IMG/VR virus record: IMGVR_UViG_3300028573_000014
Location: 15,954-79,953 of that record
Reading direction: 5' to 3' (one strand)
Length of the DNA stretch: 64,000 bases
From: a virus
The notes under the pieces are model-generated. The model was not told the DNA's origin and did not search any database. It worked only from the letters and a program-made list of their open reading frames with translations. Positions 6,048 to 22,746 of this stretch are shown here, piece after piece. The translations under genes and the position numbers were made by a program. The number at the start of each line of letters is the position of its first letter. Position 1 is the stretch's first letter.

Positions 6048-7910
6048 TTTTCCCTCTCTTATTTCTGCTTTTGTGGCTTCCTCAAGCGTGTCAGTCGCCT
6101 CCCGCTCCTGCATCACACTCTTCAAAGCCAGTTCCAAACTCTTGGCGGCAAGCACGGGGCCAAGTCCCGGTTCGGCAGGGGTGCGAGTAAGGCTGCATCC
6201 CGCTAACGGCCACAATCCCAGATGTCCGTCAGCGGGGTCATACCCCTGCTGCGCATAATGGGAAAGGCTGTCACTAGAGTAGGCAAACACACCGTTCGCT
6301 GCGTCTTTCGCAGTGCGGACGTAAAGTGGATGGTCGGTGTGGAGAGCGTGCTCTCCCCAGATTCCCCGTGGGTACACCTTTACCAGGGTGCGTTGCCCAA
6401 TAGGGTCCCCGCCGTAATCGGGGTTTTTGCCGTGTTCCATCCACAGAGGCGCGTTCGGGTAGTAATCCGCAAACGTTTTGGTCATGTCATCAAAAAAGGT
6501 ATCCTGCAAATCGAGATTTTCAGGATCCGTGAAAAGCATCATCCAGCCCTCAACCGAGGTCGGTAGACCATCGACTGCCTTCGAGCCAATCATTGAGGCA
6601 CGGTTGCAAGCACCCTGCGCTGCCAGCGTAGCCTTAACGTCATCCCCGGTTTCTTGCATCACCTGATCGTAGACTTTTGCCCACAGGCTAAAGTCTTTCT
6701 CGCTCAGATCGGATGGCATTTTGCCAGACAGATAAGCCGCAACCTTTGCCTTATCCTCTTTGGACAGGCCAAGTTCAGCCGCGCGTGCCCGAATGCGGGA
6801 ACGAACTGTTGGCTTGTCAGCATCGGGAATGTCGGCACGATTACCGTGCGGAGGGTTAGGTCCCATCGCTGCGGCTGCCAGCAACACATGTCGAGCGTCT
6901 GGCATCGGCAGTTTCCACGAAGATGGTGTGTCCTTATCGGGCACATAACCATACGTGTCAGGATTGGCATCCTTGCCTGCTGCTTCTTCCTCTGGCGCTT
7001 CACCGTAGAAGTAGGCATTGAAGTCTTCTGAGCCACGAGGATGATGAGCCTTTTCGCCTGCCACTTCATCGACTGCTGTTTCAGTCTCAGCAGGCGCATC
7101 GGAGATCTCTTCGATCACTTCCTCATCTGGCTCAGACTTGGTAGCAACGGGCACTTCCCCGTGCGCATGGGCAATGGCTTCTTCGCGTGTGGCGTAGCCT
7201 TCTTCAGGAGAACGCACACCGGAAGTCATGTCCAGAACGCGGTATTTACCGTCGGTCTTGCTCTTTACAATTTTCACTGTCAAGGACTTCTTTCCTTTCC
7301 CGCCGGATAGCGGAATGGTGTAATCCCCTGCCTCTCCATAGGATTCCCAGAGACTGTCAAAGGTCACAGGGACAGGTTGGAGTGGGATTGTCGGGGTAGG
7401 CATCTCTTTATCGATATAGGCCAACGTCATATGCGGCGTGTAGCCATGAGTCTCCAGCGGATCGGCATCCGCACCTTTCAGGAAAGCAACCAGTGCCTGC
7501 CGGAAACGTGGAAGGTCAGGGCAATCGAAGTTCAGGTAGATGCAGTCCTTATCAGGCGCATCCATGAACCGACCAATGCCGTTCAGAGTGCCACTGAGCG
7601 CAGGCCAGCCCTGTGCGAACTTAGTCAGTTCGGACTCCAGCGCTTCCTCATCTGGCATCCAACCGGGATCATCAGTGCTGCCCAGATAGGCCAGCGTGAC
7701 ATGCATTTCATCGACTGGCATCAGGCAGTCTTCTGGTAGTCCAGCGCCCTTCGCCAGTGCGATCAGATGTTGGGCAATAACAGGCGGAATCTTGAACGCG
7801 ATCATGATTCCGTCCTGGTGGTCAGCATCCTTTGCCGGGATACCAATGGTAGAACGGAGAACATAACCGCCTGCTGCCCCTGTCGCGCTGCTCATCGCTT
7901 TGGCCGTCAT
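4533..7910 (-). CDS. Polyprotein: 2H phosphoesterase + DUF6582-like + ChaB-like + HK97-type prohead protease + scaffold + major capsid protein
   Basis: HxT motifs HVT (aa 70) and HMT (aa 160); YGYVPDKDTPSSWKLP module; protease motifs PLWMEHG, YSSDS, SLTRTPAEP; HK97 MCP motifs GGYIL, AQWVGE, DKAALLGTG, FGGDWQYMYIG. Confidence 0.85.
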   Translation of the reverse strand: MTAKAMSSATGAAGGYVLRSTIGIPAKDADHQDGIMIAFKIPPVIAQHLIALAKGAGLPEDCLMPVDEMHVTLAYLGSTDDPGWMPDEEALESELTKFAQGWPALSGTLNGIGRFMDAPDKDCIYLNFDCPDLPRFRQALVAFLKGADADPLETHGYTPHMTLAYIDKEMPTPTIPLQPVPVTFDSLWESYGEAGDYTIPLSGGKGKKSLTVKIVKSKTDGKYRVLDMTSGVRSPEEGYATREEAIAHAHGEVPVATKSEPDEEVIEEISDAPAETETAVDEVAGEKAHHPRGSEDFNAYFYGEAPEEEAAGKDANPDTYGYVPDKDTPSSWKLPMPDARHVLLAAAAMGPNPPHGNRADIPDADKPTVRSRIRARAAELGLSKEDKAKVAAYLSGKMPSDLSEKDFSLWAKVYDQVMQETGDDVKATLAAQGACNRASMIGSKAVDGLPTSVEGWMMLFTDPENLDLQDTFFDDMTKTFADYYPNAPLWMEHGKNPDYGGDPIGQRTLVKVYPRGIWGEHALHTDHPLYVRTAKDAANGVFAYSSDSLSHYAQQGYDPADGHLGLWPLAGCSLTRTPAEPGLGPVLAAKSLELALKSVMQEREATDTLEEATKAEIREGKMDKEDEKEDQEEQKEDAAKDGLEEVNDANDDFDADEQPESTLHALAQMYGCEPEPTAVRGAMDNHIAAINTEGKAHPDLIKALGMPEDSKAEDVTSHLNNLYSAAMSSEKDDVPTATMSDPAPYNYSVLSRHLSSGGGSKSVGPYMTGSIAQKGINQNTGITKTPLAGVYADLKRIARMERPRFVIGAEKAMSSASGPNGGYILHQEISPVVLDPLRAKVVCYQLGAEHIDMQGTNVLTVPIMNSAPDAQWVGENQAVSDSQPGYRTVTLYPHGVSSLVKVPFNVEANMTPQAESQLRNQMAKSIALKIDKAALLGTGGALVSGGGMEIVGILNTPSAQTYDMGGNGRIPQFTDIGQAFGLLDDANVPYDDGSRRGIALHSQISRAFTLATDTLGNPLLRPAWRAAAEREIMAMPYAISNQIPTNVVEGTSTNSSYVFGGDWQYMYIGLSDQVEVRLDQTFAGNLQAGLLIYVYADVKIVYPQAFFVMKGVLPVSISGVTTGTN

Positions 7911-8452
7911 GATTGGAAAGCTCCCAACGCTTCGTCCAGCGCTTCAAGTAACATGTCTTCGACCAGATCTGCAATCTCATTCTCAGCGTCCTCGAAGTCG
8001 TTGCCCCAGCCTGTATTCTCATGGCCTGGAACAGCATCTGGACCGTAGACCGCCTGCGCGTAGTTGTCACCCTTCCAGTCCACAGCGTCATTCTCTATGG
8101 TCAGGAAAGTATCATTGGCACTGGTGTTTTCGGAGACGACCCAACTGCTTTCCAGTTTGTCGGTGCGGTCCCACTGTCCACCGTTCGGGTCCCAGTCCTG
8201 TCCAGGGATCTGCCCGGTTCTCTTCATCCAGAAATACCAGTTGCGACTGGGAAGGGTTGCGAAATCAAAGGGATGCACAACATCACCAGGTGGAGGGGCA
8301 AAGCGGTCATTGACCACTTCCACCACTGCCTCATGGATGGGACCATGCACAGCTTCGTAGATTGGTTCGCGGATGGCAGCGACCTTCTGGCGAATGTCAC
8401 GCAGAACATCTACAGCGACTGAGGGGTTGTACTCCACGCTGAAGAAACTCAT
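7907..8452 (-). CDS. Virion morphogenesis protein (HK97 gp10-like neck/tail completion, putative)
   Basis: RTDKLESSW ... NYAQAVYG ... HENTGW pattern; lies between portal and capsid genes. Confidence 0.5.
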   Translation of the reverse strand: MSFFSVEYNPSVAVDVLRDIRQKVAAIREPIYEAVHGPIHEAVVEVVNDRFAPPPGDVVHPFDFATLPSRNWYFWMKRTGQIPGQDWDPNGGQWDRTDKLESSWVVSENTSANDTFLTIENDAVDWKGDNYAQAVYGPDAVPGHENTGWGNDFEDAENEIADLVEDMLLEALDEALGAFQS

Positions 8453-10809
8453 ATCGCCACCGCCTCAGTGTCAATGACCATATTGTGCTCATGGTCATGA
8501 TGGTCATGTGACTTTGTGCCTGCGATGGGTACGCCTGCCAGTGAACCATTGGCCGGTTCAGTTGTGTCATCGAGCGTACACAGACAGTTAATCCCCGTGC
8601 AGATACAACTATCGGAGCGGGGATAGATTCCATATTTGAGCCAGGTACGCGCACGATGCACCTGCCCGTCAGCACCAGAACACGTTTCGCAGTGGTCTTT
8701 CGTGCCGCCAAGCGTAAATTTCTTCATGCCGTTCATCTTGCCGTACATGTTGCCCAGTATCTTCATGCCCTGTAGACCCTTATTGATCCACAGTTCAATT
8801 CGACTAAGCATGGCATTACGGGCTGCTGAAAACTCAGGGGTCTCCCTGAGCGGAATCACATTGCGATACATGTCGTTTGCCAGCGCAGTCCAGTAACTGC
8901 GTTCCTGCTTTGTTTCCAGATCGAGCGCTGACTTTTCTTCATCGGTCATCTCAGCGGGATCTGTACCCGCTTCCTGCATTCCGTTCTTAAACGCATTCAG
9001 GAAAGCCATCTCAATTTCGCTACGCCCTGCTACTCCGAACTGATTGCGATTCAAGTTTCCCTGGAAAGCATCGGTCATGAGTTCATATAGAGCAGTGCGA
9101 TACTGTGCCTCGGTGTCCTCGTAGCCTTTAACCGCCTGCACCCGGATGGCATTCCAGATTGATTCCGACGGTTCTTCACCGGAAAGCAGGAAACGACCAA
9201 ACGCTACTGCATGGGCGGGTAGAGAGTCGCTCTTAAATGCATAATTTCTGCCCTTGCGCTCAATGAGAACACGCCAGTTCTTCAACTCTTTGTGCTGGGC
9301 ATCGGGCAGGAACGGAATAGGATCGACACTTTTGCCTGTTGGTGCGGTAGGTGCAGTCGCTTCGGTAGATGCGCCCACTTCCGCAGCACGTGGAGTGCTT
9401 TCGCCTGTGCGGGATGGCTTATCGGGCTTAGCATTTTCTCCACCGGAAACCATGCCTGGATTACCAGGGGCCACACGCCAGTAGTTCTGCATTTCAGCGG
9501 ATGGCACTGGAATGCCGCCGATAAGGTACAGACCTGTCAGGTTTTCGTCTACATTCAGCCCCAGTGTTTTCTGAGCATTTGCCAGATCCAGAACACCGTC
9601 CTTAAGCTGCTTGCTCACGGTATCCGTGCGGGATGAGATATCCTCGTCCAGGCCACGTACACGCTTGAAGGTGGGGACAATGCGCCATTCAGGATTGAGT
9701 GGCTTGGCAACCTGCTCAGTGAAGATGTCGGCATAGCGTTCTGACTGCGGGACCAGCCAGCTAATGAGCCATTCACGCTTCTGGTCGTAGAACTTTGTGC
9801 CCTGCGCACGCTGCGCCTGACGTGGCTCAATAAGTTCAAGTGGAACGCGCAGGATACGCAGACAGGCATCACGCGCCTGGTCGGTCAGGTTGGGCATTCC
9901 CAGCTTATCGAAGTCTTGCTGGAATTTCAGCATTTCCCAACGTGTGGGTAGAACAACCGTGCGACCTGCATTGGCTGCGCCCTGATACATCCGGCGCAGG
10001 TATTCACTCAGTTCGAGTTTCTGGTCAGGACCAGGGACATAACTCGACCCGTCCGCAGGCTGAATAACAAAGGATGGCATCGCCATGTTGCGAAAGAACA
10101 TCAATTGCGTGGCTGTGATCTCTGTCTCGGTAGCAGCCTGCGCATAAGCGACCATCAGCGGACCCGTGCCGCCAAAGTCTTCAAAGAAGTCAATGTTATG
10201 GAAATAAACAGTGTCTTCCGGCGGCAACCAGTCCAGATCTGGTTCAAGCTCGCTGCCCCAGACCGGACGGATATGGAAACCGCCCAGACCGCGTGAAGTA
10301 TCGGTCTCACGGCGGAAGAAGTTATTGTTAATCCACTGAAACCCGTCGAGAATGCCAGACTGAGTCTTCAACCGACGCAGCAACACTTCGCCATAGCAGC
10401 AGTAGGACGTTTCAGACCGCTCAATAATGCTCTGGAAGTTAGACTGGAATGCCGCCTGAATGCCCTGAGCGCGAGGGGTGAAGAATTTGGGATCTCCCTC
10501 TTCGAGCAGTTCTCCAGCGGCATTGGCGATCTTAAAGTCAACCTGGCGCAGCGACTCAGCGCGGAGTTCAATGGCAGAACGTGCTGTAACTGCTGTCCTG
10601 AACAAATGTGCGATCTCGCTGTAGGAGACCTGCGGACGTAGCAGTGCGACTTCCTGATTCAGGTAAGTCTTGATAGCGCTGCCGCTGTTTTCCATGACGT
10701 TGAAGGGCAGGTCATTCAGGTCCAGTTCAAAGCGATTCTTGCGAATCGTTTGCGTGATCTGCTTTGATCGATTCTTTTTGCCCTGGAAGTGTCGATTACG
10801 GTGACTCAT
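8449..10809 (-). CDS. Portal protein fused to C-terminal MuF-like minor head domain
   Basis: Portal motifs YGEVLL, FFRNMAMP, AANAGRTVVLP, LRVPLELI; C-terminal HCETC...CTGINCLC Cys cluster; ATGA overlap with TerL stop. Confidence 0.85.
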   Translation of the reverse strand: MSHRNRHFQGKKNRSKQITQTIRKNRFELDLNDLPFNVMENSGSAIKTYLNQEVALLRPQVSYSEIAHLFRTAVTARSAIELRAESLRQVDFKIANAAGELLEEGDPKFFTPRAQGIQAAFQSNFQSIIERSETSYCCYGEVLLRRLKTQSGILDGFQWINNNFFRRETDTSRGLGGFHIRPVWGSELEPDLDWLPPEDTVYFHNIDFFEDFGGTGPLMVAYAQAATETEITATQLMFFRNMAMPSFVIQPADGSSYVPGPDQKLELSEYLRRMYQGAANAGRTVVLPTRWEMLKFQQDFDKLGMPNLTDQARDACLRILRVPLELIEPRQAQRAQGTKFYDQKREWLISWLVPQSERYADIFTEQVAKPLNPEWRIVPTFKRVRGLDEDISSRTDTVSKQLKDGVLDLANAQKTLGLNVDENLTGLYLIGGIPVPSAEMQNYWRVAPGNPGMVSGGENAKPDKPSRTGESTPRAAEVGASTEATAPTAPTGKSVDPIPFLPDAQHKELKNWRVLIERKGRNYAFKSDSLPAHAVAFGRFLLSGEEPSESIWNAIRVQAVKGYEDTEAQYRTALYELMTDAFQGNLNRNQFGVAGRSEIEMAFLNAFKNGMQEAGTDPAEMTDEEKSALDLETKQERSYWTALANDMYRNVIPLRETPEFSAARNAMLSRIELWINKGLQGMKILGNMYGKMNGMKKFTLGGTKDHCETCSGADGQVHRARTWLKYGIYPRSDSCICTGINCLCTLDDTTEPANGSLAGVPIAGTKSHDHHDHEHNMVIDTEAVAI

Positions 10810-12179
10810 AAGAATATGTACTCCGCAGTGGGCCATGCAACATCAATGGGCGGAGGAGGCGGAAACTGGACATTTCCATAAAGCACATCAGCGGGGATAA
10901 TGCCCTGCGAGGCGTGCGGGATATCGATAAGTTCCGGTGCCCACTTGGGAACACCGTAGGTTGCGCCATGATAGGCCAGCGCTAGAGACATCACCATATC
11001 GTCATTCGAGTCACGGGGACCGGAATAACGGAATGCGCCAGATGGCAGTCGCTCCATCTGGAATGCATGGAGTTCGTCCAGAAGAAGCTGACCTATCGGC
11101 TGACCGTCAATGGCTTCACCCTTGTGAAGAACCTGTAGCTGACGATTGTCGAAGGCGGCAGCCAGTGCCTCAATGATGAGCGCCTTACTGCTACCACTGG
11201 TAGTGAAGGGCATAATGGGCAAGCCAGTGTCCATGAGACTTTCCATGAACGCCAGGTTGGTATTCTGCTCGACAATGATGCCTGCTGCGTGGAAAAGATT
11301 TGCCAGTGCAACAATGCGACCTTTTTGCAGCTTGTAGTCCACATGGTTGGCCCGGTCAATATAACAAACCGACATCAACGTTACGTCGATGACGGTGAAC
11401 ACGGAAAAGTCATTGGTCTTGGCAAGGTCAACGCCGATGACGTAGGTATGACCGGCCTTTGGCTGAGCCTGAACAAAGCCCTGCGCCATCTCTTCCAGAT
11501 TGCGGAACACAGATCCTGCATCCGAAATGAACTCGGCCAGGTATTCCTGCGAGAAAATGTTGACGGGCGTAGTTTTACGTGCATCTTCAATTTCACTTGC
11601 AGGCAGGAACGGATTGTCGGAAGAAGGCTTGTGCCAGCTCTCCCAGTCGGGAAAAGCGTCGTTTTTGCCCAGTCGATACAGATTCCAGAACCAGTTGTAA
11701 CCCTTTGGCGTTGAGGCAAACAGGGCACGACCCTGCGTGGTCATGAGCATGGGTCGGATAACTTCTTGCCAGGTGTCACCAGAGGGAACAACCGCAGCCT
11801 CGTCAATGAGCACGAGATCGTATTCGCGTCCACGAGGACCATCTGGGTTGTCCAGTGACCACATTTCCACGACTGCACCGTTGATGGTCTCAATACGGTG
11901 TTCGTCTTCCTTCTTTTCCTTCGTGATGGGCGCAAGCATGTTCTTGACAATGCGCCACATGTCTGCCAGCATCTTGTAGGTCGGGCACATGTAGGCAATG
12001 CGCTTGGCCTCGGACACTGCTCGAAGTATTTCAGCACGAAGGGTAACGGTCTTGCCCCATCGTCGACCACAGTCCAGAACACGGAACCGGGCAGGCGACT
12101 CATAGACTTCTATCTGTCCAGGATGAAGGGCGAGACCCAGATAGACATTAATCCTGTTGTCCATCGACCACCTGTGCAT
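10806..12179 (-). CDS. terL: Terminase large subunit
   Basis: Q motif HPGQ, Walker A GRRWGKT, Walker B LIDEAA, motif III ASTP, nuclease GVDLA...VEQN...NDDMVMSLALA. Confidence 0.95.
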   Translation of the reverse strand: MHRWSMDNRINVYLGLALHPGQIEVYESPARFRVLDCGRRWGKTVTLRAEILRAVSEAKRIAYMCPTYKMLADMWRIVKNMLAPITKEKKEDEHRIETINGAVVEMWSLDNPDGPRGREYDLVLIDEAAVVPSGDTWQEVIRPMLMTTQGRALFASTPKGYNWFWNLYRLGKNDAFPDWESWHKPSSDNPFLPASEIEDARKTTPVNIFSQEYLAEFISDAGSVFRNLEEMAQGFVQAQPKAGHTYVIGVDLAKTNDFSVFTVIDVTLMSVCYIDRANHVDYKLQKGRIVALANLFHAAGIIVEQNTNLAFMESLMDTGLPIMPFTTSGSSKALIIEALAAAFDNRQLQVLHKGEAIDGQPIGQLLLDELHAFQMERLPSGAFRYSGPRDSNDDMVMSLALAYHGATYGVPKWAPELIDIPHASQGIIPADVLYGNVQFPPPPPIDVAWPTAEYIFL

Positions 12180-12645
12180 CTATGACTCTGGTGGTCTCTT
12201 CATCCTTCTTTTGCGGAGCGCCCAGAACGAAATTGATAACAATGTCGCCCCGTCCAGATTCCTGCTTCGGGCTGTACTTCTCTGGCCGGTTGCCTTTCAG
12301 GTGAATTTCAATCGCCTTGATTTTGGCTCCGGCAGGCGTATCCGGGGCAAGCGCCATGTCAACCAGCGCATCTTCGACATCATCTACAATGGACTCTTGA
12401 ACATCATCCATAAGCTGGCGGAAGGCTGGATCAGTCTCACGCCAACGATAGACCATAAACTTTTGTAGATCCGCTGCTTTACAGGCTTTACCGAGGTGCG
12501 CCCGAAACTCGGAATAGGTCCGCAGAAAGCGTTCTTTCTGGTCCTGAATCTCAGCAAGCCGTTCTTCTTCCACATTGAATGCAGGAGAAAACGACTTGAT
12601 ATCTCGGTCTGGAGTTTGATCTAAGCGCTGCTGCCCGTCAGTCAC
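12148..12645 (-). CDS. terS: Terminase small subunit
   Basis: HTH (ACKAADL..VYRWRETDPAF), LKGNRPEKY motif; directly upstream of TerL. Confidence 0.8.
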   Translation of the reverse strand: MTDGQQRLDQTPDRDIKSFSPAFNVEEERLAEIQDQKERFLRTYSEFRAHLGKACKAADLQKFMVYRWRETDPAFRQLMDDVQESIVDDVEDALVDMALAPDTPAGAKIKAIEIHLKGNRPEKYSPKQESGRGDIVINFVLGAPQKKDEETTRVIDAQVVDGQQD

Positions 12646-12741: not shown

Positions 12742-13095
12742 CTACGAGGTGTGTATTACCTCAGAAAATCTACTCTCTCTTATGACGGGATGGCTATATT
12801 GAGAATTGACCAGAAAGAATTCACCGTTCTTTTTAACGGCACGGCATTCCCAGGGACGGGTCAGTTGCATTGCATAGTTGAACGCATTGCCCGTCGAGAT
12901 GCCCATGATTTTCCCGATCTTCTCGTAGGTCGGTGTATTGCCACCGTGATCTGCGGCATAGAAAGCAATAATGAGTTCGACCCGATCTCGCTGCAATAAA
13001 TCCTTGTTTGCAATGAGTTCAATGAGTTCATCGGGCGGGATCCACTCGTCCAGGTCAGGCTGGAAGGGTTTGCGTTCTGTAGATTTATTTGACAT
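12742..13095 (-). CDS. LexA-N-like winged HTH DNA-binding protein
   Basis: FYAADHGGNTPTYEKIGKIMGIS resembles LexA DNA-binding domain; no peptidase domain. Confidence 0.6.
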   Translation of the reverse strand: MSNKSTERKPFQPDLDEWIPPDELIELIANKDLLQRDRVELIIAFYAADHGGNTPTYEKIGKIMGISTGNAFNYAMQLTRPWECRAVKKNGEFFLVNSQYSHPVIRESRFSEVIHTS

Positions 13096-13324
13096 CGGTC
13101 AATGCCTTTAATCGCTCAGATATATCCCACGAGGACTCACTTAGCCAGTACTTCTTGTCTTTGCAGGATACTTTTCCATATGATACCAGTTCCCTGACAT
13201 ACATGTGGGCGTTCCCTGCGCTTGTGGCAGCCCCTTCCGCTATTTCGCGCATCGTGGGAAACTGTCCACCATGAGAAAGTCCATAGGTTGCAATAAAGAG
13301 TTCTATTTGATCGCGTTTTACCAT
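13085..13324 (-). CDS. LexA-N-like winged HTH DNA-binding protein (paralog)
   Basis: HGGQFPTMREIAEGAATSAGNAH..VRELVSYG. Confidence 0.65.
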   Translation of the reverse strand: MVKRDQIELFIATYGLSHGGQFPTMREIAEGAATSAGNAHMYVRELVSYGKVSCKDKKYWLSESSWDISERLKALTDVK

Positions 13325-13860
13325 GATTTTGACTTTACCATAAAAGGTCCACGGACGTTAGGACTAAAGCGTGCAGCAACAGTCAGCGCCAGTTCGATCC
13401 GATGATCAACATCCCTCATTTTCTCAGTAGACCCAAGCGATCCGAGTGCATAATCTTCGCCAGATCCACAGGCAGCATAGTTCTCTGCGTAATGATTGAC
13501 CTGAAAATCACTACAGACGCAGTAGATAGTTCCATGATAGCCTACCAGAAATTCTCCGCTGCTTTCCAGATTGTTTTCGATCTTGGAGATACCATGTTCT
13601 TTGAACAAACTGCGAACGTTTTCTGCAAAAACTTTGACCATGTAGGCATCGTCAGAAACACCGTCTTTCTGCCTGGGAACAGTCAGATGATGCTGCAAGA
13701 TTTGCCCCATCCTGAATGACCAGGTATAGCCAATGAGGAAGTCTCCGACCTCGAAAACCTTTGGCAGCAGGCTGGTTCGCATTGTATTGCCTACGCTGGA
13801 TGAACTATCAGCGCCTATGTATACCGTGTCGTTTTTAGCGATGCCAACAATGCAGGTCAT
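13318..13860 (-). CDS. Ntn-hydrolase, HslV/proteasome-beta-like peptidase
   Basis: N-terminal MTCIVG (Thr nucleophile), GADS, ACGSGEDYALGSL. Confidence 0.8.
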   Translation of the reverse strand: MTCIVGIAKNDTVYIGADSSSSVGNTMRTSLLPKVFEVGDFLIGYTWSFRMGQILQHHLTVPRQKDGVSDDAYMVKVFAENVRSLFKEHGISKIENNLESSGEFLVGYHGTIYCVCSDFQVNHYAENYAACGSGEDYALGSLGSTEKMRDVDHRIELALTVAARFSPNVRGPFMVKSKSW

Positions 13861-14264
13861 TTGTATCCTTTGCTACTATCGTTTATGCTGCTAATTTCAC
13901 TGGATATTGTGGCAATATAGGCGCGGCCATCCTTAAATTTCACAATTACTTTTGTGCCCGGATATTTACCAGCCGCAACCCCCAATGGATCGTCAATGGA
14001 AATAGAGATAAAGGAGCCTTTTCGCATAAACCGTACAAAGGTTTTCCCTTCGGAATCTGGGTCGTAAATATAGCCTTCCGCAGTCCCTAATATGCCAACC
14101 TCACCTTCCTCAGTGTCTGGCGTATCGGATGGCGGACTCCACCAGGGCAAATAGAGATCAGGCCACATTTCGCGCTGATCGAAGTACCGATCCCGCTTCG
14201 ACTGCCACTTGTGCTGCCGTGCATCTCGCCCCAGTCGGCGGATGGCTTCCAGTAAGGTTGTCAT
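13857..14264 (-). CDS. Hypothetical protein
   Basis: ORF coupled to neighbours by ATGA overlaps. Confidence 0.55.
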   Translation of the reverse strand: MTTLLEAIRRLGRDARQHKWQSKRDRYFDQREMWPDLYLPWWSPPSDTPDTEEGEVGILGTAEGYIYDPDSEGKTFVRFMRKGSFISISIDDPLGVAAGKYPGTKVIVKFKDGRAYIATISSEISSINDSSKGYK

Positions 14265-14869
14265 GATATCCTGTAAGGACTTTCCATGACAGGCGGATCA
14301 TCCCCGGTAAGTTCAACAAACTCTCCGAGCATATCCGCGCGAAACCCGACCTCGGAGGAGGACTCCACCACACTGCGAAGATCCTCGGCATTAAGGAACG
14401 GGTTGGTTTTGATGGGGAACATGAAGAACGCTGCATCGAGAAAGTGCTTCTTGCTCTGGGCGAACTTCTTCAACTCGATAAACAGGTCGGTCTGGTGCTT
14501 ATGGCTTGGAACAGGCGTACCGACTGCCAGCAGTTTCCCGTCTGGGATTAAGCACGGCAAAAGTTCATCGAGCAAATAAGGAGTCATGGTCGCAGGCTCA
14601 TTGATGATGACGAGATCGAACTGATGTCCCCTGTATTTATCCTCGTTTTTCTCCATGTAGACAATTTTTCTGCCGCTGCTTACCACCATTGTTGTTTTGA
14701 AGAATTTGTTCATCCCGTGATTTGGACCAACAAAGAGGATTTCACGAGCATCGGATATCTCTATGCAAAATCTGCATAGTGCATCTTTGCCCCAGCGCCG
14801 ACTGGTAGACACAACACGGTAGCGATCTCTGGAGTCCAGGACTAATTGCTGTCCAGTATGCGGGATCAT
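14261..14869 (-). CDS. Stand-alone degenerate terminase ATPase domain (TerL N-terminal paralog)
   Basis: Aligns by eye with TerL aa ~17-220: PHTGQ, SRRWGKD, RGHQFDLVIINEPA, VGTP, TNPFL, MLGEF; Walker A T->D, Walker B D->N. Confidence 0.85.
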   Translation of the reverse strand: MIPHTGQQLVLDSRDRYRVVSTSRRWGKDALCRFCIEISDAREILFVGPNHGMNKFFKTTMVVSSGRKIVYMEKNEDKYRGHQFDLVIINEPATMTPYLLDELLPCLIPDGKLLAVGTPVPSHKHQTDLFIELKKFAQSKKHFLDAAFFMFPIKTNPFLNAEDLRSVVESSSEVGFRADMLGEFVELTGDDPPVMESPYRIS

Positions 14870-15132
14870 TCTGTTGCCGCCTTGATCTCCTGATCGATCT
14901 GATCTGCCAGTGAACGCAATTCATTGGCGCGACTTTTGACCTGCATCCACGAAGCAATGGAATTAAGCAATGGTTCGTAATTGAAGTCGGGCAAAATCGC
15001 TGGTCCGTTAGGCAAAAAACGGGGAAGTGAATTCCCGCTGGCAACATCATTTAGTAGATGGAAAGCCCGAATTTCCTCCTCGGTGCAGGTTACAATAATC
15101 TCACCCTGAGACGTATAGCCAATTTGTTTCAT
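14866..15132 (-). CDS. Hypothetical protein
   Basis: Translationally coupled ORF. Confidence 0.55.
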   Translation of the reverse strand: MKQIGYTSQGEIIVTCTEEEIRAFHLLNDVASGNSLPRFLPNGPAILPDFNYEPLLNSIASWMQVKSRANELRSLADQIDQEIKAATE

Positions 15133-16256
15133 TTCGTTTTCACTCCTTCAATAGCCTTCCGTAGTTCTTCAGCAACTCTGCCCACCTCTACCGATCTCAT
15201 CTTCAAGTGCATGGGGAGCGACAATAGACGGTTACTGGCCTCGGTTGCTCTGGGCAAGTATCCGTGATACATCGGATACTGCGTGTTATCGACATAATGT
15301 ACACCCGTTCCAATGCCAGCCAACTTCAGCGCATTGACCACTTCATTGCGGTTATCTACCAGTACCTGATACAGATGGCGAGACGGGACGCAATCTGGGG
15401 ACATGGGCACGGTCTCGCAGACACCTGCTAACAGCTTGTCATACAGGGCTGCGATGCTCCGTCGATGCTGATTGTCATCGTCCAGATATTGCAGGGCAAC
15501 CAGTCCCATTGCTGCCATGATACTGTTGCCGTTGTATTTCCAGCCAACATTCTCCACGTCATATTCCCATGAGTATCCGGTGCCGGAAGACCTTGCATAG
15601 GTATCCTTGTCGATGCCCATCCAGGACAATTTGCGCGACTGAGCATCCATTTCAGGATCTGCCCAACAGATCATGCCAGAATCGCCCGTCGGTAGATTTT
15701 TCACTGCCTGAAAGCTGAACACGGAAACATCAGCGGTTGCACCAACATGATCGCCATCTAGCCAGCGCGTTCCTGCCATGTGAGCAGCGTCCAGAATGAG
15801 CTTTAACCCATGAGATTGGCATATCTCCCAGATTTTGGCGTACTGTCCTACATTGCCTCCAAGTCCTACGAAAACTACGGCTCTGGTGCGCGGGGTGATT
15901 TGCTCCTCTACACTGTCGGGGTCCAGACACATGTACTGGTCAACATCTGCGAATACAGGTGTTAATCGTTCATACAAAATAGGATGATTCGTGCTGACGA
16001 AGGTGATCGGCGTGGTGATCACTTCATCACCATCGGACCATCCATAACTGAGTTCGTGCATTGCCAAATGAAGTCCTGCTGTCGCACTATTCAAGAAGCA
16101 CGCATTTGGCAGTCCAGTGTATTTCTTCCACGCTTCTTCAAACTCAACAGTCTTGTAACCGATGCCCGTCCAGCCCTTTTCGAGACACTGGCGAATCTCG
16201 GCAAGCACTTCTTCGGTGCGAAAGACGGGGGTGAAAAGTTGGATGGAATCGCTCAT
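15129..16256 (-). CDS. DegT/DnrJ/EryC1/StrS-family PLP-dependent sugar aminotransferase
   Basis: NSATAGLHLA, DAAHMAG, FSFQAVKNLPTGDSG (PLP Lys), LSLPMH. Confidence 0.95.
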   Translation of the reverse strand: MSDSIQLFTPVFRTEEVLAEIRQCLEKGWTGIGYKTVEFEEAWKKYTGLPNACFLNSATAGLHLAMHELSYGWSDGDEVITTPITFVSTNHPILYERLTPVFADVDQYMCLDPDSVEEQITPRTRAVVFVGLGGNVGQYAKIWEICQSHGLKLILDAAHMAGTRWLDGDHVGATADVSVFSFQAVKNLPTGDSGMICWADPEMDAQSRKLSWMGIDKDTYARSSGTGYSWEYDVENVGWKYNGNSIMAAMGLVALQYLDDDNQHRRSIAALYDKLLAGVCETVPMSPDCVPSRHLYQVLVDNRNEVVNALKLAGIGTGVHYVDNTQYPMYHGYLPRATEASNRLLSLPMHLKMRSVEVGRVAEELRKAIEGVKTK

Positions 16257-16510
16257 TTGATCACCTGCGAATTACCACTGCCACCAACAATATTCTGTGT
16301 CGTACTGATCGGCGGACCATCGTAGCAGTCAATGATGGTCGATTGTCGTCCTGTACCATGCCAGAACGCCCACTTAATGAAGTGTCGATGTTCCATCCAG
16401 AACTCGATCAATTCTTCAGCAGCCTCTTTGCCATCGTTGCCATGCGGATACATTTCACTGGCGTTATCGACCAGTTCCTGAAATTTTTTGCGAAGTTGTG
16501 CAGGAGTCAT
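16253..16510 (-). CDS. Hypothetical protein
   Basis: Coupled ORF with SD. Confidence 0.5.
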   Translation of the reverse strand: MTPAQLRKKFQELVDNASEMYPHGNDGKEAAEELIEFWMEHRHFIKWAFWHGTGRQSTIIDCYDGPPISTTQNIVGGSGNSQVIK

Positions 16511-16532
16511 TTCGTTGTTTTTCCTCTCATTT

Positions 16533-16640
16533 TGCGGTAAAATACGAATTACTGTGGTCTAGGGTAGCTCCCGAAAAGGTGGTTTCGTCACCGCCCTGAC
16601 CCATATACATCTTGACGAACTAGCACAAGACGAGGTGCTA
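16533..16640 (+). promoter_or_regulatory. Promoter (-10 TAAAAT) and structured 5' leader of HNH gene
   Basis: TAAAAT 16538-16543; GGTC-AGGGT...GCCCTGACC stem enclosing GGTG/CACC hairpin; TAGCAC/GTGCTA hairpin over the SD. Confidence 0.5.
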
Positions 16641-16641
16641 A

Positions 16642-17433
16642 GTGATCTACCAGCCGTCTCCAATTGGTCGGATATGCAAAAAGTGCAACGAATGGAAACC
16701 GCGAGCAAGGCTCGTAAAGGAAAAACGCTGTCTCTGGGGCGTACATGCCCTTTGCCTTGACTGTGTTGCTGCGAGAATAAGAGAAGACAGACAGAAAAAT
16801 CCTCTCAAATACCGTATTTATGAGCGGAAATTTAGAAAAGAACATCCAGATCGGTATCGCACATATCAAAGAAGCCATAACGAACAGAGAAACGCAGGAA
16901 ACCGTCGCCGCCGCGCTCTCAATCCACAACATGCTAGAGACTATCACAATAGATGGCGAAAGAAGAATCGTGAACTTGTCAGACGGTATGAACAAGCGAC
17001 TAATAGCCGTCATCCTGATCGCGTAAAGCAAAAATCGCAGGTGAGAAGATCCCGAAAGCATAACCTTCCCTCCGAATTCACTGAAAAACATTGGTTGGAA
17101 TGTCTTCAATACTTCAACAATAGATGCGCATACTGCGGTAGACCACAAGGACTGTGGCATTCTCTTTCGCAAGATCACTTTATCCCAGTTAAAAAAGAGG
17201 GCGGTTATATTCCAGGCAACATCGTACCAGCATGTCATGGTATAGATGGTTGCAATGAGAGCAAACACGACAAGGATGCCGTTGATTGGCTGACTGCAAA
17301 GTACGGAAAGCGAACAAGCAAATTGATCTTGCAAAGAATATTTGCCTATTTTCAATGGGTCGAGCATTCTAGCGCGTTACCCTCAACTGAAAATCCCGCG
17401 CAGGTTCATGCCACACACCAGGGACAATCGTAA
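16642..17433 (+). CDS. HNH homing endonuclease (inverted insertion)
   Basis: CKKC/CLDC Zn finger, basic linker, CAYCG...DHFIP...GNIVPAC...CNESK; only + strand gene in a - strand block. Confidence 0.9.
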   Translation: MIYQPSPIGRICKKCNEWKPRARLVKEKRCLWGVHALCLDCVAARIREDRQKNPLKYRIYERKFRKEHPDRYRTYQRSHNEQRNAGNRRRRALNPQHARDYHNRWRKKNRELVRRYEQATNSRHPDRVKQKSQVRRSRKHNLPSEFTEKHWLECLQYFNNRCAYCGRPQGLWHSLSQDHFIPVKKEGGYIPGNIVPACHGIDGCNESKHDKDAVDWLTAKYGKRTSKLILQRIFAYFQWVEHSSALPSTENPAQVHATHQGQS

Positions 17434-17887
17434 TGTTTTCACGATTGAACCCGGCATCCACTACCATATCTGACAGTGACTGCGGCGTATAACCCCAGCG
17501 GTGTCCCATTAACGGTTCATCGGGCGAACTATTTCCGAAGACTCCCCACCATCCGAACTGCTCAACCGATCTGCCATCTGGTGGTTGAATAACACCTGCG
17601 ATCACTTTGCAGCAGTATGCCAGATCGGGCTGCTCAAGGATCAGAAGACCTTCAGGCAGCAAAACATCATAGCATTGCTTGAGCACAATCAAAGCGTCCT
17701 GTTTGAAGAAATGCTCGATAATGTGCGATGCTACGACTTCTGTGAATTTTTGTGACATCACTTCGTCGGGTAACGGCGGTAGCATAGCGCAAATATCAGG
17801 TTCGTTGGCAGGATTCCCATCAATGGTTACATATTCCTGCCAATGCCATTCTCCGCTGCCTATGAGCAACTTCGTCTTATTTATCAC
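17369..17887 (-). CDS. Class I SAM-dependent methyltransferase
   Basis: LLIGSG, ASHIIEHF, VLLPEGLLILEQPD. Confidence 0.8.
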   Translation of the reverse strand: MINKTKLLIGSGEWHWQEYVTIDGNPANEPDICAMLPPLPDEVMSQKFTEVVASHIIEHFFKQDALIVLKQCYDVLLPEGLLILEQPDLAYCCKVIAGVIQPPDGRSVEQFGWWGVFGNSSPDEPLMGHRWGYTPQSLSDMVVDAGFNRENITIVPGVWHEPARDFQLRVTR

Positions 17888-18131
17888 GGTCTTCCTTTCC
17901 CTTCACTAATTCTTTCCAGATTACAGGTTGTGCTGTCAAATCTTCACAGATATAAAAATGTCCGCTGCCGTCCTGCACCATCACCCTGTTACTGGGAGGT
18001 GATATCTTGAAAATAGCCAACTCTGCAAACGATGGCATTGTCATCGGCAAGATAATCGTTCTCAGTGGCTGATATATCATGCAGCCCCACCGATAGTCTC
18101 CTGCGACATAGTATGGTTTCATTGATCTCAT
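17877..18131 (-). CDS. Hypothetical protein
   Basis: ATGA-coupled start at 18131. Confidence 0.45.
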   Translation of the reverse strand: MRSMKPYYVAGDYRWGCMIYQPLRTIILPMTMPSFAELAIFKISPPSNRVMVQDGSGHFYICEDLTAQPVIWKELVKGKEDRDK

Positions 18132-19027
18132 GGCTTGAAACCCGCAAGCACCTTTATCCACTTGAGCGCCACCTTGTCCGCTGTGAATTGCTGTGCAGCG
18201 ACCCATCCCAACTCAGCATCCGACTCGCGCAGGGTTTTGTCGTTTGCGCTGGACAGAGCTGCGCACCATTGCTCAGTAGTCTCTGCCATCCAGAACAATC
18301 CTATCTCCTGATAAGAAGGGATAGGCGTTCCTACCACTGGTAGACCGAGGCCATAGGCTTTCAGCAGTCGGTTGGCACTCTTGGTCATCACCCAGTTGAC
18401 CGACCATTGGGGACTGCCAAACACGAACGGGAAGATCGCCATATCATGCTCGACCATCAATTGGTCTACTGTATCAGCGGACCACTGCTGCGCATTCCAG
18501 CCTTCTTTAGGCAGTTGATCCGTCTGCTCGGAGAAATGCGGATTGTTGAGATCCGTAATAATGGTCAGATTAATGCCCAGTGTACGGCAAGCACGGGCTG
18601 CATAGCATAGATGATACATGTTCTGAGTATTGCCGACCCAGACAGCGCTATTCAAGTTGTCTGCGTGTACTTTCTTGCGAGGGCTGGTCGGCTCAGTATC
18701 CAGACAATCTGGAATAACGATTGCCCCAGGGAAATGAGCGAGCTTGGACTCAGTGTCCACTGTGATCTGATCCACCTCGGCAGGGATAGGCGTGGAAATA
18801 AGATCGTCAATGTCGAAAATGATACGCTTCCCCGCAGCCTTGAACATCTTCATTGAGCCATCCTGCGGCCAGACCTTCTGATACACCACAACGTCACAAT
18901 CCGATGAATTGTAACTGTTGAAGGTAACGGTATGCCCCATCGCTCGGAGCGCTGTAGCGACCTTCCAGACACGGAGTCGACTACTGGCAAAGTCTGTGCT
19001 GCCTGCGGGGAAATAGTTAATGCGCAT
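18128..19027 (-). CDS. Glycosyltransferase (GT-B, GT4-like)
   Basis: ASSRLR, IFDIDD, VWVG, KSANRL..YGLGLPVVGTPIPSY. Confidence 0.8.
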   Translation of the reverse strand: MRINYFPAGSTDFASSRLRVWKVATALRAMGHTVTFNSYNSSDCDVVVYQKVWPQDGSMKMFKAAGKRIIFDIDDLISTPIPAEVDQITVDTESKLAHFPGAIVIPDCLDTEPTSPRKKVHADNLNSAVWVGNTQNMYHLCYAARACRTLGINLTIITDLNNPHFSEQTDQLPKEGWNAQQWSADTVDQLMVEHDMAIFPFVFGSPQWSVNWVMTKSANRLLKAYGLGLPVVGTPIPSYQEIGLFWMAETTEQWCAALSSANDKTLRESDAELGWVAAQQFTADKVALKWIKVLAGFKP

Positions 19028-19400
19028 TGTTGTCTCTCAATTCACTGAACAACTGGTCAATGGCACCAGCTTCGATATAAACGCTAGCTTTTACTGACTC
19101 TGCCATTCTCCGATAAGCATCCTCGTAAGTATCTGCCCACATACAATCAATGAAGTCTGGCTGCTTACCTTCCTTCCAGATGTCCCATGCGATGCGACGT
19201 TCAATGCCCGATTCTGCTATCTCTAGCGGAGGTGCTGTATATGTATGCAATGTCCACCAGTTAACTTCAAGCGGTTTAATTTGCGCCACATTGTAAGGGA
19301 AAGCGATGCCGCGATAATCGAAGTCGCCGCGGTTGGTTCCCACATGGAATGTCCACTGCTTTGAAATAAGAAGGATGGCAGGAGCCAGTTTGATCTTCAT
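19017..19400 (-). CDS. Hypothetical protein
   Basis: Coupled ORF. Confidence 0.5.
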   Translation of the reverse strand: MKIKLAPAILLISKQWTFHVGTNRGDFDYRGIAFPYNVAQIKPLEVNWWTLHTYTAPPLEIAESGIERRIAWDIWKEGKQPDFIDCMWADTYEDAYRRMAESVKASVYIEAGAIDQLFSELRDNNAH

Positions 19401-19894
19401 CGTCTGCCTACAAACAATCTATCCGACATGGGATCATAAGCGGCAAAAATATCGAGATAGTCATATGGATTAGAGGGGTAGCCATGATAATTACCAACCA
19501 TATAACGTTCAAATCGGATAGTGCGAACACTAACACTGGGACTAACACCGAAGTTGAGATCGATCATGCCAATATGTTCGATGCTCATTGGTCGCCAGTT
19601 GGCGGGCCGGTCCGCCGGATGGTAGCGATTATCGACCAGCCACTTGTGAAACCGCTTGACGCAGCGCAAATAGAACGCCTTCCAGCCTTTTGCGGGATAC
19701 CAGTTATTCCGATAAGGACGCATCATTGAATCGTCCTGTACAGGGATCTGTATCTCACGGGGAGAATTGTACACAAGTTCAATGGTCGTCTTGTCATTCA
19801 ACTGTGGAATTTTGCTGCGCATTTCGCGCCACAGATAAAAGGCAAGCGGACCATCTCCGATAACTGACTGCAAAGGATGAACGGGCGCTCTCAT
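19397..19894 (-). CDS. Hypothetical protein
   Basis: Coupled ORF. Confidence 0.5.
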   Translation of the reverse strand: MRAPVHPLQSVIGDGPLAFYLWREMRSKIPQLNDKTTIELVYNSPREIQIPVQDDSMMRPYRNNWYPAKGWKAFYLRCVKRFHKWLVDNRYHPADRPANWRPMSIEHIGMIDLNFGVSPSVSVRTIRFERYMVGNYHGYPSNPYDYLDIFAAYDPMSDRLFVGRR

Positions 19895-20856
19895 GCCTTT
19901 ACCCCCACATGCTCCAGTATATCCATAACACGCTGACGACTTCGTTCAAAGGTGAATTGTTCAACCATTCGATATTGTTCAGCAACTGCATTCCCATAAT
20001 AACTGTTGCTGCTGAGCAATTCAGCCATCACGCTAGCCTGCGCAGGGTCAAAGGGGTCAATATGTAGTCCTGGCGCATCATTGCACCACTCAGAACTGAT
20101 CACAGGTGTACCGACCATCGCGCACAGAACCTGCTGCCGACCATAGCTATGGCGCGTGTAAATGTCCACGCACATCTGCGCCTTAGCCGTAATCGCCACA
20201 AAATAAGGCCATGCGACGTGCCCCAGAAACTCAGCCTTGAGGCCAGCGATACGCGCATAGTCCGAGGTCCAGTCCCGCTGCGCTGCATACAGCACCCGAC
20301 AGCCTGTTTTGCGCTGGATGGCAGCCACTGCCGCAACGTTATTGGCAGTATTGTTGTCAATGTCGATGCTGTGGTCGAGCGTGAGAATGTAGTCTTCTTT
20401 GGGCAAGTCACGATAAGGCAAGAAGAATTCTGTGTCACCGATAGGGGATGGGAGATAAAACGTTGGTTTGTTCAATAGCTCGCCATACACATTGCAATCT
20501 GCATGTGTACGCCCCCCAATGGCATCTGCCATGCTCATCTGGTGCAGCATAAACATCCAGTCTGGACGAGTCAACACAATATCCACGCAGGCATCCGGGC
20601 AGGCAATACAGTAACAGGTCGGGTTGACCGCTTTTATCTGCTCAATGTGACGCGAGTCTGTGGTGTGGAATAAGTTAACTATAACGATCCTTGCTTTCCG
20701 CACCGCATCTGGCATTGTCCCTGGTTGCCGTGTATCCCAGCGTTGCCACGGCAAATCCAACACGGTAGACCAATTAGAGACGCTTACGGTAGGCGGACCA
20801 CCTGGTCCGCTTGTAACGAACTCGCCCCACACAAGCGCAAGATCACTCAGTTGCAT
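19891..20856 (-). CDS. Glycosyltransferase (GT-B fold, divergent)
   Basis: AEFLGHV, HSYGRQQVLCAMVGTPVISS, C-terminal FTFERSRQRV typical of GT4 donor domain. Confidence 0.7.
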   Translation of the reverse strand: MQLSDLALVWGEFVTSGPGGPPTVSVSNWSTVLDLPWQRWDTRQPGTMPDAVRKARIVIVNLFHTTDSRHIEQIKAVNPTCYCIACPDACVDIVLTRPDWMFMLHQMSMADAIGGRTHADCNVYGELLNKPTFYLPSPIGDTEFFLPYRDLPKEDYILTLDHSIDIDNNTANNVAAVAAIQRKTGCRVLYAAQRDWTSDYARIAGLKAEFLGHVAWPYFVAITAKAQMCVDIYTRHSYGRQQVLCAMVGTPVISSEWCNDAPGLHIDPFDPAQASVMAELLSSNSYYGNAVAEQYRMVEQFTFERSRQRVMDILEHVGVKA

Positions 20857-21139
20857 TGTTAACCACCTTGTTCATTTCTTCCCGCACAATAAGGCGGATC
20901 ATTCTGGTCAAGTCAACCGACTTCTCCAGCGGGACATAATTTGCCGCGTAATCAGTGGAGATGCCCAGTGCCACCACGCCCGGAATGCTTGCCCTCATTC
21001 TTTGCAAAACAGCATTGATAAGTTCCCCGTCTCGGCCTGCAACAATCCAGACATCATCACCCAGATTGAACATTTTCATCTTTCCCAGGTCGAAGATTCC
21101 AGGTTGAGTAGCATCAATTGGCTCAGGTAGATCACTCAT
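20843..21139 (-). CDS. Hypothetical protein
   Basis: Coupled ORF. Confidence 0.5.
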   Translation of the reverse strand: MSDLPEPIDATQPGIFDLGKMKMFNLGDDVWIVAGRDGELINAVLQRMRASIPGVVALGISTDYAANYVPLEKSVDLTRMIRLIVREEMNKVVNNATE

Positions 21140-21389
21140 CCAACATTCCTTTCACAACACCCTCAATGTATTTCTTTAAAACTTCATTGTCATTAAGATT
21201 AAGCACTATTTCCAGCGAGAAGGGCAAGACTACCATTCGCACACCGATAGGAGCCAGCCTTTCCTGGTACACACTCACAACATGATCGAGCTTTTCATGA
21301 TATAGTGGCGATGCACCGAGCGGTAGTCCAAACAGTATCAGCGTCGGGCTAACAACGATAACCGAAAGCAGAATGTCAGGCGTAGCCAT
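21132..21389 (-). CDS. Hypothetical protein (weak portal clip-like pattern)
   Basis: MATP...RMVVLPFSLEI versus portal MAMP...RTVVLPTRWEM. Confidence 0.45.
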   Translation of the reverse strand: MATPDILLSVIVVSPTLILFGLPLGASPLYHEKLDHVVSVYQERLAPIGVRMVVLPFSLEIVLNLNDNEVLKKYIEGVVKGMLDE

Positions 21390-21390
21390 A

Positions 21391-21939
21391 TTATGCAAAC
21401 CTTATCGATAGGCCACCGTGCCGCGTGCCATGCAAAGCCAGTGCGGTAGCCACTACTGTTTCAGTGTTTCTGACGGGCAGAAAATCTCCCTGTCCGCCAG
21501 CGCGGTATTCATAGCCAGATAGCTCATTGATAAGCCCTTCGTCAGGAACAATGCGCAATCGCCCCATATTTAATTCCAGCGCCAGATTATTGAGCATGTC
21601 GGCTCTGCTTGCCCTGGTCATACGTAGTGGGTACACGGGTAATCCCTCCGATCGCAACGCTTCGATGTTAGGACCGCCAATGCTGGCCGCCTCAACATAG
21701 ATAAGCTGCGGTTTCCATATTTTGTGCAACGCGGATACTCGATCTCGCTGCACTGCATAACCCTCACCTATGGTTCGGTCCAGCGCGACCAGTTGATGCG
21801 TTGTAGCATCCATAATGGCTACGCCCATACGGTCCATATGGTTTCCCCAGTCCAGCCCGAAGACTATCCGATGACCAACAACAGGCTTATCCTGCGGCTC
21901 AACTCTGGCATATCGTTCTGGATTGGGGAAGAGCCTCAT
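21391..21939 (-). CDS. Stand-alone terminase RNase H-like nuclease domain (TerL C-terminal paralog), degenerate
   Basis: GLDWG..D, YVEA, GLPV, LINEL; terminal NDDMVMSLALA of TerL becomes NTETVVATALA. Confidence 0.85.
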   Translation of the reverse strand: MRLFPNPERYARVEPQDKPVVGHRIVFGLDWGNHMDRMGVAIMDATTHQLVALDRTIGEGYAVQRDRVSALHKIWKPQLIYVEAASIGGPNIEALRSEGLPVYPLRMTRASRADMLNNLALELNMGRLRIVPDEGLINELSGYEYRAGGQGDFLPVRNTETVVATALALHGTRHGGLSIRFA

Positions 21940-22565: not shown

Positions 22566-22746
22566 AATTCTCCCTATCCTGTAATATGAGCGGTTAAAAT
22601 GACGATCCCGAAGAAAAACAGTGCAGCGGCAAGGCTAGCCCAGTCGGGCAGTTTCATCTTGCCACCAATCCAGCGAACCAATCCGCCTACGAGGGCAGCA
22701 ACAAGGCACAACACAATAACAACCGCGGCGACATGCGTATCGACAG

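Follow-up and report, generated by a model that had tools for sequence, protein, structure and literature searches.

An ATPase-only paralog of the large terminase subunit

The window analyzed here is a 64,000-nucleotide stretch (bases 15954-79953) of the IMG/VR viral record IMGVR_UViG_3300028573_000014, which comprises 79,953 bp, derives from an uncultured soil phage and is estimated by CheckV to be about half complete. In addition to a complete gene for the large terminase subunit (TerL), the window contains, about 1.6 kb upstream of terS and in the same direction as the terS-terL-portal genes, an open reading frame (ORF) for a 202-residue protein that matches only the ATPase domain of TerL and is denoted mini-TerL below. 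Both residues of its nucleotide-binding site that normally handle Mg-ATP are replaced: the Walker A lysine is followed by Asp, where Ser/Thr is usual, and Walker B has Asn in place of Asp. Across a broad set of TerL-type ATPase domains, this swap of residues is strictly coupled, and it recurs in full-length terminases, including some that appear to be the only terminase of the respective phage. The features of the mini-TerL gene, its two flanking ORFs and the TerL of the same window are as follows (positions are those of the window).

14261-14869, minus strand: mini-TerL, ATPase-domain-only TerL paralog, 202 amino acids, beginning with MIPHTGQQ (from the ORF list, BLASTP, phrog_2 and AlphaFold2/Foldseek)
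14849-14860, minus strand: Q/adenine motif, H4-x-G-Q7, at the extreme N-terminus of the protein, with Q7 invariant across the family alignments
14783-14803, minus strand: Walker A, residues 23-29, SRRWGKD (DNA AGT CGG CGC TGG GGC AAA GAT); Lys28 is kept and Asp29 replaces Ser/Thr
14630-14632, minus strand: Arg80, aligned by profile alignment (4ZNI, 4ZNJ) with the arginine of the P74-26 TerL that is Ala in 4ZNJ, an entry titled "mutant R139A"
14597-14614, minus strand: Walker B strand, residues 86-91, LVIINE, read from the DNA; Asn90 replaces Asp and the catalytic Glu91 is kept
14866-15132, minus strand: upstream ORF, 88 amino acids, the stop of which overlaps the mini-TerL ATG by 4 nucleotides (ATGA); no Pfam or PHROG match
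13857-14264, minus strand: downstream ORF, 135 amino acids, the ATG of which overlaps the mini-TerL stop by 4 nucleotides (ATGA); no family match
10806-12179, minus strand: canonical TerL, 457 amino acids, with GRRWGKT, LIDEAA and a nuclease domain (Terminase_6N, E=1.3e-14; phrog_2, E=4.4e-43)

A first-pass annotation, made from the letters of the window alone, had described this ORF as intact, translationally coupled and highly diverged, and so it is, with ATGA overlaps on both sides and 25% identity to the TerL of the same phage. The two substitutions that it pointed out, Walker A SRRWGKD for GRRWGKT and Walker B NEPA for DEAA, were recovered when the DNA was read again; the full Walker B context is VIINEPA in the mini-TerL and LIDEAA in the TerL. 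Neither motif (SRRWGKD, VIINE) conforms to the canonical patterns, GxxxxGK[ST] for Walker A and hhhhDE for Walker B. The replacement of Gly by Ser at the start of Walker A is found also in P0003, a homolog with the canonical pair of residues, and the motif of T4 gp17 is SRQLGKT. The other elements of the site are kept, namely the Q motif, the two arginines and the lysine of the P-loop, the arginine at the finger position, the catalytic Glu and the C-motif (T118-P119). Arg80 is part of an RG pair that is conserved in P0001-3 and in the TerL of the window; R139 of the P74-26 TerL, with which it aligns, is taken here to be the trans-acting arginine finger. The polypeptide extends about 15 residues past LGEF, the motif at the close of the ATPase domain, and contains no nuclease domain.

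Homology and fold of the mini-TerL

A BLASTP comparison aligns residues 4-189 of the mini-TerL collinearly with residues 19-222 of the TerL from the same window (25% identity, E=5e-14), in agreement with the extent initially assigned to the ORF, from the Q motif to the EF end of the domain. A search against PHROG profiles identifies phrog_2, terminase large subunit (E=3.4e-11). The Pfam profile Terminase_6N, named in the first-pass annotation as a check on the assignment, yields only a partial match with a score of 12.8 bits (E=0.091), below the gathering cut-off of 22 bits, so that this check fails with Pfam and succeeds with PHROG. An exhaustive phmmer search detects 68 TerL-type matches outside the own family of the mini-TerL. 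The AlphaFold2 model, for which eight family sequences served as input, is confident (predicted local distance difference test, pLDDT, 82; predicted template modelling score, pTM, 0.81), and the best Foldseek matches of this model in the PDB are the ATPase domains of the TerL proteins of P74-26 (4ZNK), D6E (5OEA) and T4 (gp17, 2O0J), with TM scores of about 0.7. The mini-TerL is a real paralog of the TerL ATPase domain.

Conservation and the ATPase-only clade

The DNA of the window has been re-assembled in many rhizosphere metagenome runs from 2019; an identical mini-TerL protein is present on 11 contigs, and contigs of four rhizosphere runs that span positions 13300-15200 show zero differences within the ORF. 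One homolog, P0002, is a 206-residue protein with 70% identity that was found by a word-indexed search. An exhaustive HMMER search of 1.8 billion representatives identifies P0003, a 201-residue protein with 41% identity (E=2e-40), the remaining matches being ordinary TerLs and a few further short proteins. Homologs with 70%, 41% and about 28% identity begin and end at the same points and conserve the same catalytic columns, and the N- and C-termini of the mini-TerL coincide with domain boundaries. In an alignment of ten short members, the invariant or nearly invariant columns include Q7, R24, R25, G27, K28, E91, G117 and T118. A profile search with the family alignment detects no further short members, and related-locus searches with the mini-TerL ORF, A4, P0003 and P0074 in viral, metagenome and genome collections gave no match.

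In phylogenetic trees, the short proteins group apart from full-length TerLs, with a Shimodaira-Hasegawa-like approximate likelihood ratio (SH-aLRT) support of 80 for 11 rows and 91 for 12 rows (173-254 amino acids). Within the same small clade, the mini-TerL and P0002 are swapped whereas P0003 is canonical (SRRWGKS / LIDEPA); because this sister is canonical, the mini-TerL clade has gained the swap separately from the other swapped terminases.

The only other genomic context comes from G001, a complete, terminally repeated phage genome of 70.5 kb, in which a 227-residue mini-TerL with GKE / NE is encoded 0.7 kb upstream of a canonical terL (GKS / DE) that is followed by portal and capsid genes. 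The best match of the G001 mini-TerL in the window is the 14261-14869 ORF (29% identity, 4e-14), not the TerL of the window. The TerLs of G001 and of the window are 38% identical and belong to one well-supported clade, and none of the other genes of a 20-kb stretch of G001 is shared with the window. Given that the mini-TerL and a related TerL are all that this 20-kb stretch has in common with the window, the mini-TerL and terL appear to travel together, which is the sole lead to the function of the mini-TerL. The long retention suggested from the divergence of the ORF is thus well founded, with homologs of the same length at 70% and 41% identity and a related gene beside terL in an otherwise unrelated, complete phage. 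ATPase-only paralogs with such substitutions, a search for which was recommended at the outset, include P0002, the G001 protein (GKE / NE) and a protein of the Yersinia phage vB_YenM_56.17 (GAD/LGE).

A coupled swap between Walker A and Walker B

Among the first 70 ATPase domains aligned, Asp or Glu follows the Walker A lysine in eight, and exactly these eight lack the Walker B Asp; two of them are full-length TerLs, P0057 (460 amino acids) and P0068 (439 amino acids). An unbiased scan of IMG/VR DNA with the pattern H-x2-Q-x15-G-R-R-[W/F]-G-K-[D/E], which leaves the downstream sequence unconstrained, yields at least 120 loci with GRR[WF]GK[DE] (L096-L215). The matches listed include 114 ORFs of at least 150 amino acids, nearly all of them full-length TerLs of 398-470 amino acids, and every listed ORF has Asn or, less often, Thr at the position of the Walker B Asp. 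In the comparison set of 79 TerLs that were chosen for xRRWGKx alone, all combine GK[TS] with DE. Pooling of 262 TerL-type domains gives the following counts for the residue that corresponds to the Walker B Asp.

Asp/Glu after the Walker A Lys (n=122): Asp 0, Glu 0, Asn 114, Thr 8
Ser/Thr after the Walker A Lys (n=138): Asp 135, Glu 3, Asn 0, Thr 0

On a tree of 106 representatives (less than 60% identity), each of the two traits changes nine times, always together with the other, so that nine of nine independent pairs point in the same direction; with only the well-supported branches counted, five pairs are left, for which a sign test yields p=0.06, the lowest value attainable with this number. 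Swapped full-length TerLs (e.g., P0057, P0068, L106 and L112) sit on several branches of the tree other than that of the mini-TerL. Judged from these sequences, the two substitutions appear to constitute one coupled event that arose about five to nine times. On the same tree, P0016, with GKN and DE, is the sister of P0029, with GKD and NE. The codon path from Ser/Thr to Asp has two steps, and Asn following the lysine may represent the stage between them.

A change of the same kind is seen among TerLs of an unrelated lineage: KSRQIGAT / LDE is present in both the TerL and the ATPase-only ORF of phage 186, but the counterpart of this ORF in the isolated Yersinia phage vB_YenM_56.17 reads KSRQIGAD / LGE. 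P0063, which at first appeared to be an exception with GKP and NE, was rejected as such; in this TerL, an intein follows GK and a normal DE occurs farther along the sequence. Intein-like insertions are located directly after the Walker A GK in P0063 and after GKD in L201.

In the P-loop NTPases, the only strictly conserved, universal catalytic module is described as consisting of the Ser/Thr after the Walker A lysine and the Walker B Asp (PMC9599734), a textbook view with which the swap is at odds. No terminase with GKD/NE and no compensated Walker A/B swap was found to be described in the literature.

The swapped site in sole, full-length terminases

In four contigs of 59.6, 59.8, 59.9 and 74.8 kb, for which the CheckV completeness is 100%, the GKD/NE TerL is the only phrog_2 match, and searches of the same contigs with the TerL_ATPase (PF03354), Terminase_3 and GpA_ATPase profiles reveal no other terminase gene; the single weak Terminase_3 match falls inside the GKD/NE TerL gene itself. 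In a further contig, G002, the swapped TerL is part of a TerS-methyltransferase-TerL module. The swapped TerLs keep the nuclease motifs as well, e.g., GVDLG and HDDCV in P0057. Given that a tailed phage cannot dispense with a packaging ATPase, and that a swapped TerL is the sole terminase found in these genomes, we infer that the swapped site must support ATP-driven packaging. The swapped arrangement appears, at the level of sequence, to be compatible with a working packaging ATPase, for which ATP hydrolysis is suggested by its use in sole TerLs.

A broader proposal, slightly short of probable and put forward tentatively, is that the natural inversion to Asp/Glu and Asn/Thr, in a sizeable number of terminases of uncultured phages and in the mini-TerL, still supports packaging, arose repeatedly and reversibly, and may be favored by the altered Mg-ATP face that it presents to host sensors. 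Avs2, for one, recognizes this face of the terminase via a bridging ATP (PMC13601566).

A proposed rewired accessory ATPase and the alternatives

The homology and fold of the mini-TerL, the integrity and conservation of its gene, and the coupling of the swap together with its occurrence in sole TerLs are directly established. On this basis, the best overall explanation, one that is somewhat favored rather than secure, is that the gene encodes a conserved mini-TerL with a rewired site that is probably active as an accessory ATPase. Under this explanation, the mini-TerL would be expressed from the late operon, upstream of terS-terL-portal. Its nucleotide site would be rewired, not degraded, with the acidic residue moved from Walker B to the position after the lysine (Thr to Asp) and Asn left at Walker B; a carboxylate at this position could, in our view, assume both Mg ligation and proton acceptance. 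The protein would most likely bind Mg-ATP and probably hydrolyze it, and could serve as an accessory or regulatory ATPase subunit that acts with the terminase motor, i.e., with the TerL ring, TerS or the portal. An ATP-bound, slowly hydrolyzing regulator is a possible variant.

Several observations weigh against this explanation. In many P-loop NTPases, the single Walker B change of Asp to Asn preserves NTP binding but abolishes hydrolysis (PMC9599734). The arginine-finger residue is lacking in some members of the family (P0015, P0025, P0016, P0021 and P0029), so that the mode of action of a classical ring ATPase may not apply to it. Only about 12 clusters make up this rare family, its gene context comes from two genomes only, and the support for the mini-TerL clade is moderate. 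The completeness of the four genomes with a sole swapped TerL is a CheckV estimate, and no full-length swapped TerL was found in an isolated phage: the TerLs of Hardycor1, Tunturi_4 and Shewanella QDWS are canonical, and there are no closer isolates. There is no RNA run among the sequencing runs listed with the locus.

The first two of these observations are shared with the strongest alternative, in which the mini-TerL is a pseudo-ATPase or decoy, that is, a TerL-ATPase-like fold, perhaps ATP-bound, that does not turn over ATP and binds TerL, the portal or a host sensor (Avs, Upx). The loss of hydrolysis with retention of binding in the Asp to Asn mutants is what such a protein would require, and P0044 has lost even the Walker A lysine (GAT); furthermore, truncated TerL paralogs are visible to host immunity. 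However, the two changes have never been seen apart and occur in full-length TerLs that are the only terminase found in a genome, and conservation within the family is strongest at the catalytic residues, for which a pure binder has no need. The one tested case, T4 vs.8, is toxic with the sensor and not protective (PMC13601566), which speaks against a simple decoy. Judging from the sequences, the mini-TerL seems to show neither an uncompensated loss of Mg-ATP residues nor relaxed catalytic constraint, the two signs by which a dead enzyme would be recognized. Altogether, the pseudo-ATPase is a rather unlikely alternative, and the initial description of the mini-TerL as a catalytically dead, non-enzymatic binder lacks support, given that the substitutions are coupled in the 262 domains, occur in more than 100 full-length TerLs and are present in the sole terminase found in four genomes rated complete by CheckV.

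The second alternative involves another TerL-derived gene of the window, which qualifies the initial characterization of the mini-TerL as a stand-alone protein: the ORF is indeed ATPase-only, but the same strand also carries a nuclease-only paralog.

21391-21939, minus strand: nuclease-only TerL paralog, 182 amino acids, 26% identity to residues 224-409 of the TerL of the window (BLASTP, E=9e-13)

The product of this gene starts at the hinge between the ATPase and nuclease domains and ends with ..SIRFA, like ordinary TerLs. It shows 51% identity to the C-terminal domain of an ordinary TerL fragment, P0073, and 50% identity to P0074, a nuclease-only protein of 188 amino acids that has lost the first catalytic Asp. 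In the window protein, the first Asp and the Glu are retained, and HDD is represented by NTE, in which Glu takes the place of the second Asp. The mini-TerL and this product could, in principle, make up a second terminase split into two pieces. The mini-TerL ends about 15 residues past LGEF, and the nuclease ORF starts at the next hinge (..LFPN.. aligns with ..VFRN..), so that the two sum to one complete TerL without overlap; they also share the strand and the late region. Against a split terminase, the order of the two is inverted, with the nuclease ORF 6.5 kb upstream of the ATPase ORF, and their depth of divergence is unequal, the mini-TerL being only 24% identical to P0073. Moreover, G001 encodes a mini-TerL without a nuclease-only gene, and the first catalytic Asp is missing from the nuclease-only homolog P0074. 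A single gene split by the sugar/methylation cluster described below, or by another insertion, is excluded because the order of the domains on the strand is inverted. A two-piece TerL is accordingly an improbable explanation, and a functional pair of the mini-TerL and the nuclease-only product is unlikely.

Finally, the low identity to the TerL of the same phage, the score below the Pfam threshold and the rarity of the family could suggest that the gene is what remains of a terL that was duplicated or displaced and now decays in the absence of selection, but the intact frame with coupled start and stop, the homologs with shared ends and conserved catalytic columns, the termini at domain boundaries and the confident AlphaFold2 model make this by far the least credible reading.

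The packaging module and neighboring genes

The accessory ATPase that is favored here would act in the context of a packaging and head module that, beyond the TerL gene listed above, includes the following genes.

12148-12645, minus strand: small terminase subunit, TerS (phrog_4044, E=1.3e-13)
8449-10836, minus strand: portal protein (phrog_12, E=3.5e-15)
4533-7910, minus strand: major-capsid fusion protein, 1125 amino acids, with an HK97-type major head domain at the C-terminus (phrog_10, E=4e-29)

The N-terminal part of the 4533-7910 product matches PHROGs annotated as RNA ligase (E=2e-12), an unusual fusion with a capsid domain. Between the mini-TerL gene and terS, at 13318-13860 on the minus strand, there is a gene for a homolog of HslV-family peptidases (phrog_1040, E=1.4e-24). 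Just upstream of terS lie two adjacent small ORFs, 12742-13095 and 13085-13324 (minus strand), that are paralogs of each other (40% identity over 47 residues, E=7e-12); no family match was found for either.

The region between the mini-TerL and the nuclease-only paralog includes a sugar/methylation cluster (15129-24150, minus strand) that consists of a DegT/DnrJ aminotransferase (E=5e-84), two methyltransferases, a glycosyltransferase of the GT1 family and several ORFs without assignment. The sole gene on the plus strand within this minus-strand block is an ORF at 16642-17433 with similarity to HNH endonucleases (HNH, E=1.2e-5); it is antisense to a 259-residue ORF without a family match, and the two are probably not both genes. 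A megablast search with 12.6 kb of the window against isolated phages gave no match, so that the phage has no near isolated relative in that set, and tblastn detects distant TerLs only.

Implications

ATPase-only copies of TerL beside terL are present in many phages, including phage 186, T4 (vs.8) and the Rak2-like jumbo phages, and ATPase-only paralogs are, as a kind, already known; the surprising part is the strictly coupled, recurrent inversion in more than 100 terminases. The shortcut by which mutation of both Mg/ATP residues is equated with a dead binder is unsafe because the two changes represent one coupled event that is found also in complete, sole terminases. If the swapped site is active, it would be a natural exception to two residues that are held to be invariant in all P-loop NTPases. 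The swap would further allow a direct genetic test of whether the two residues form a single module joined by a hydrogen bond, with the prediction that either change alone inactivates a model TerL and that both together restore it. The finding is relevant, too, to the way in which terminase-sensing immune proteins read the ATP site.

Comparison with known systems

The ATPase domains of the TerL proteins of P74-26 (4ZNI/4ZNK), D6E (5OEA) and T4 (gp17, 2O0H) have the same fold as the mini-TerL (TM score of about 0.7) and share with it the order of motifs, namely the Q motif, the P-loop, the arginine aligned with R139, Walker B with the catalytic Glu, and the TP of the C-motif. In contrast to these proteins, the mini-TerL has no nuclease domain, is only 202 residues long, carries Asp after the lysine and Asn in Walker B, and scores below the threshold of Terminase_6N.

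The packaging ATPase of phi29, gp16, belongs to the additional strand conserved glutamate (ASCE) class and works without a TerL-type nuclease domain. It is the sole packaging ATPase of its phage and has a C-terminal domain of its own, whereas the genome with the mini-TerL encodes a full TerL too.

With regard to gene organization, the closest counterparts are truncated TerLs that accompany a complete one. Such genes have been described beside terL in the Rak2-like jumbo phages (CBB_274) and in phiM12 and phiN3 (PMC5259590), and T4 vs.8 is likewise a truncated TerL paralog (PMC13601566). The record of phage 186 contains an annotated ATPase-only ORF, NP_052250.1, between Orf12 and W (L217:1215-1961), and gp020 of the Yersinia phage vB_YenM_56.17 is an ATPase-only TerL paralog (L218:1654-2418). 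The paralogs of the P2 family sit between the terminase and portal genes, and a second copy is present in about 23 of 490 P2-like records. Like the mini-TerL, CBB_274, the ORF of phage 186, gp020 of vB_YenM_56.17 and T4 vs.8 are ATPase-only copies that coexist with a complete TerL, most often within the packaging module or close to it. These paralogs stem from TerL lineages of the T4 and P2 types and resemble the mini-TerL in general kind only. The mini-TerL differs also in its position upstream of terS, to which it is not adjacent, and in the presence of a nuclease-only paralog in the same genome.

The nucleotide site itself has its best counterpart in the full-length TerLs with GRR[WF]GKD and hhhNE or hhhTE, such as P0057, P0068, L106 and L112, in which the swapped pair is identical and is embedded in the same motif context; unlike the mini-TerL, these proteins possess nuclease domains and lie on other branches of the tree.

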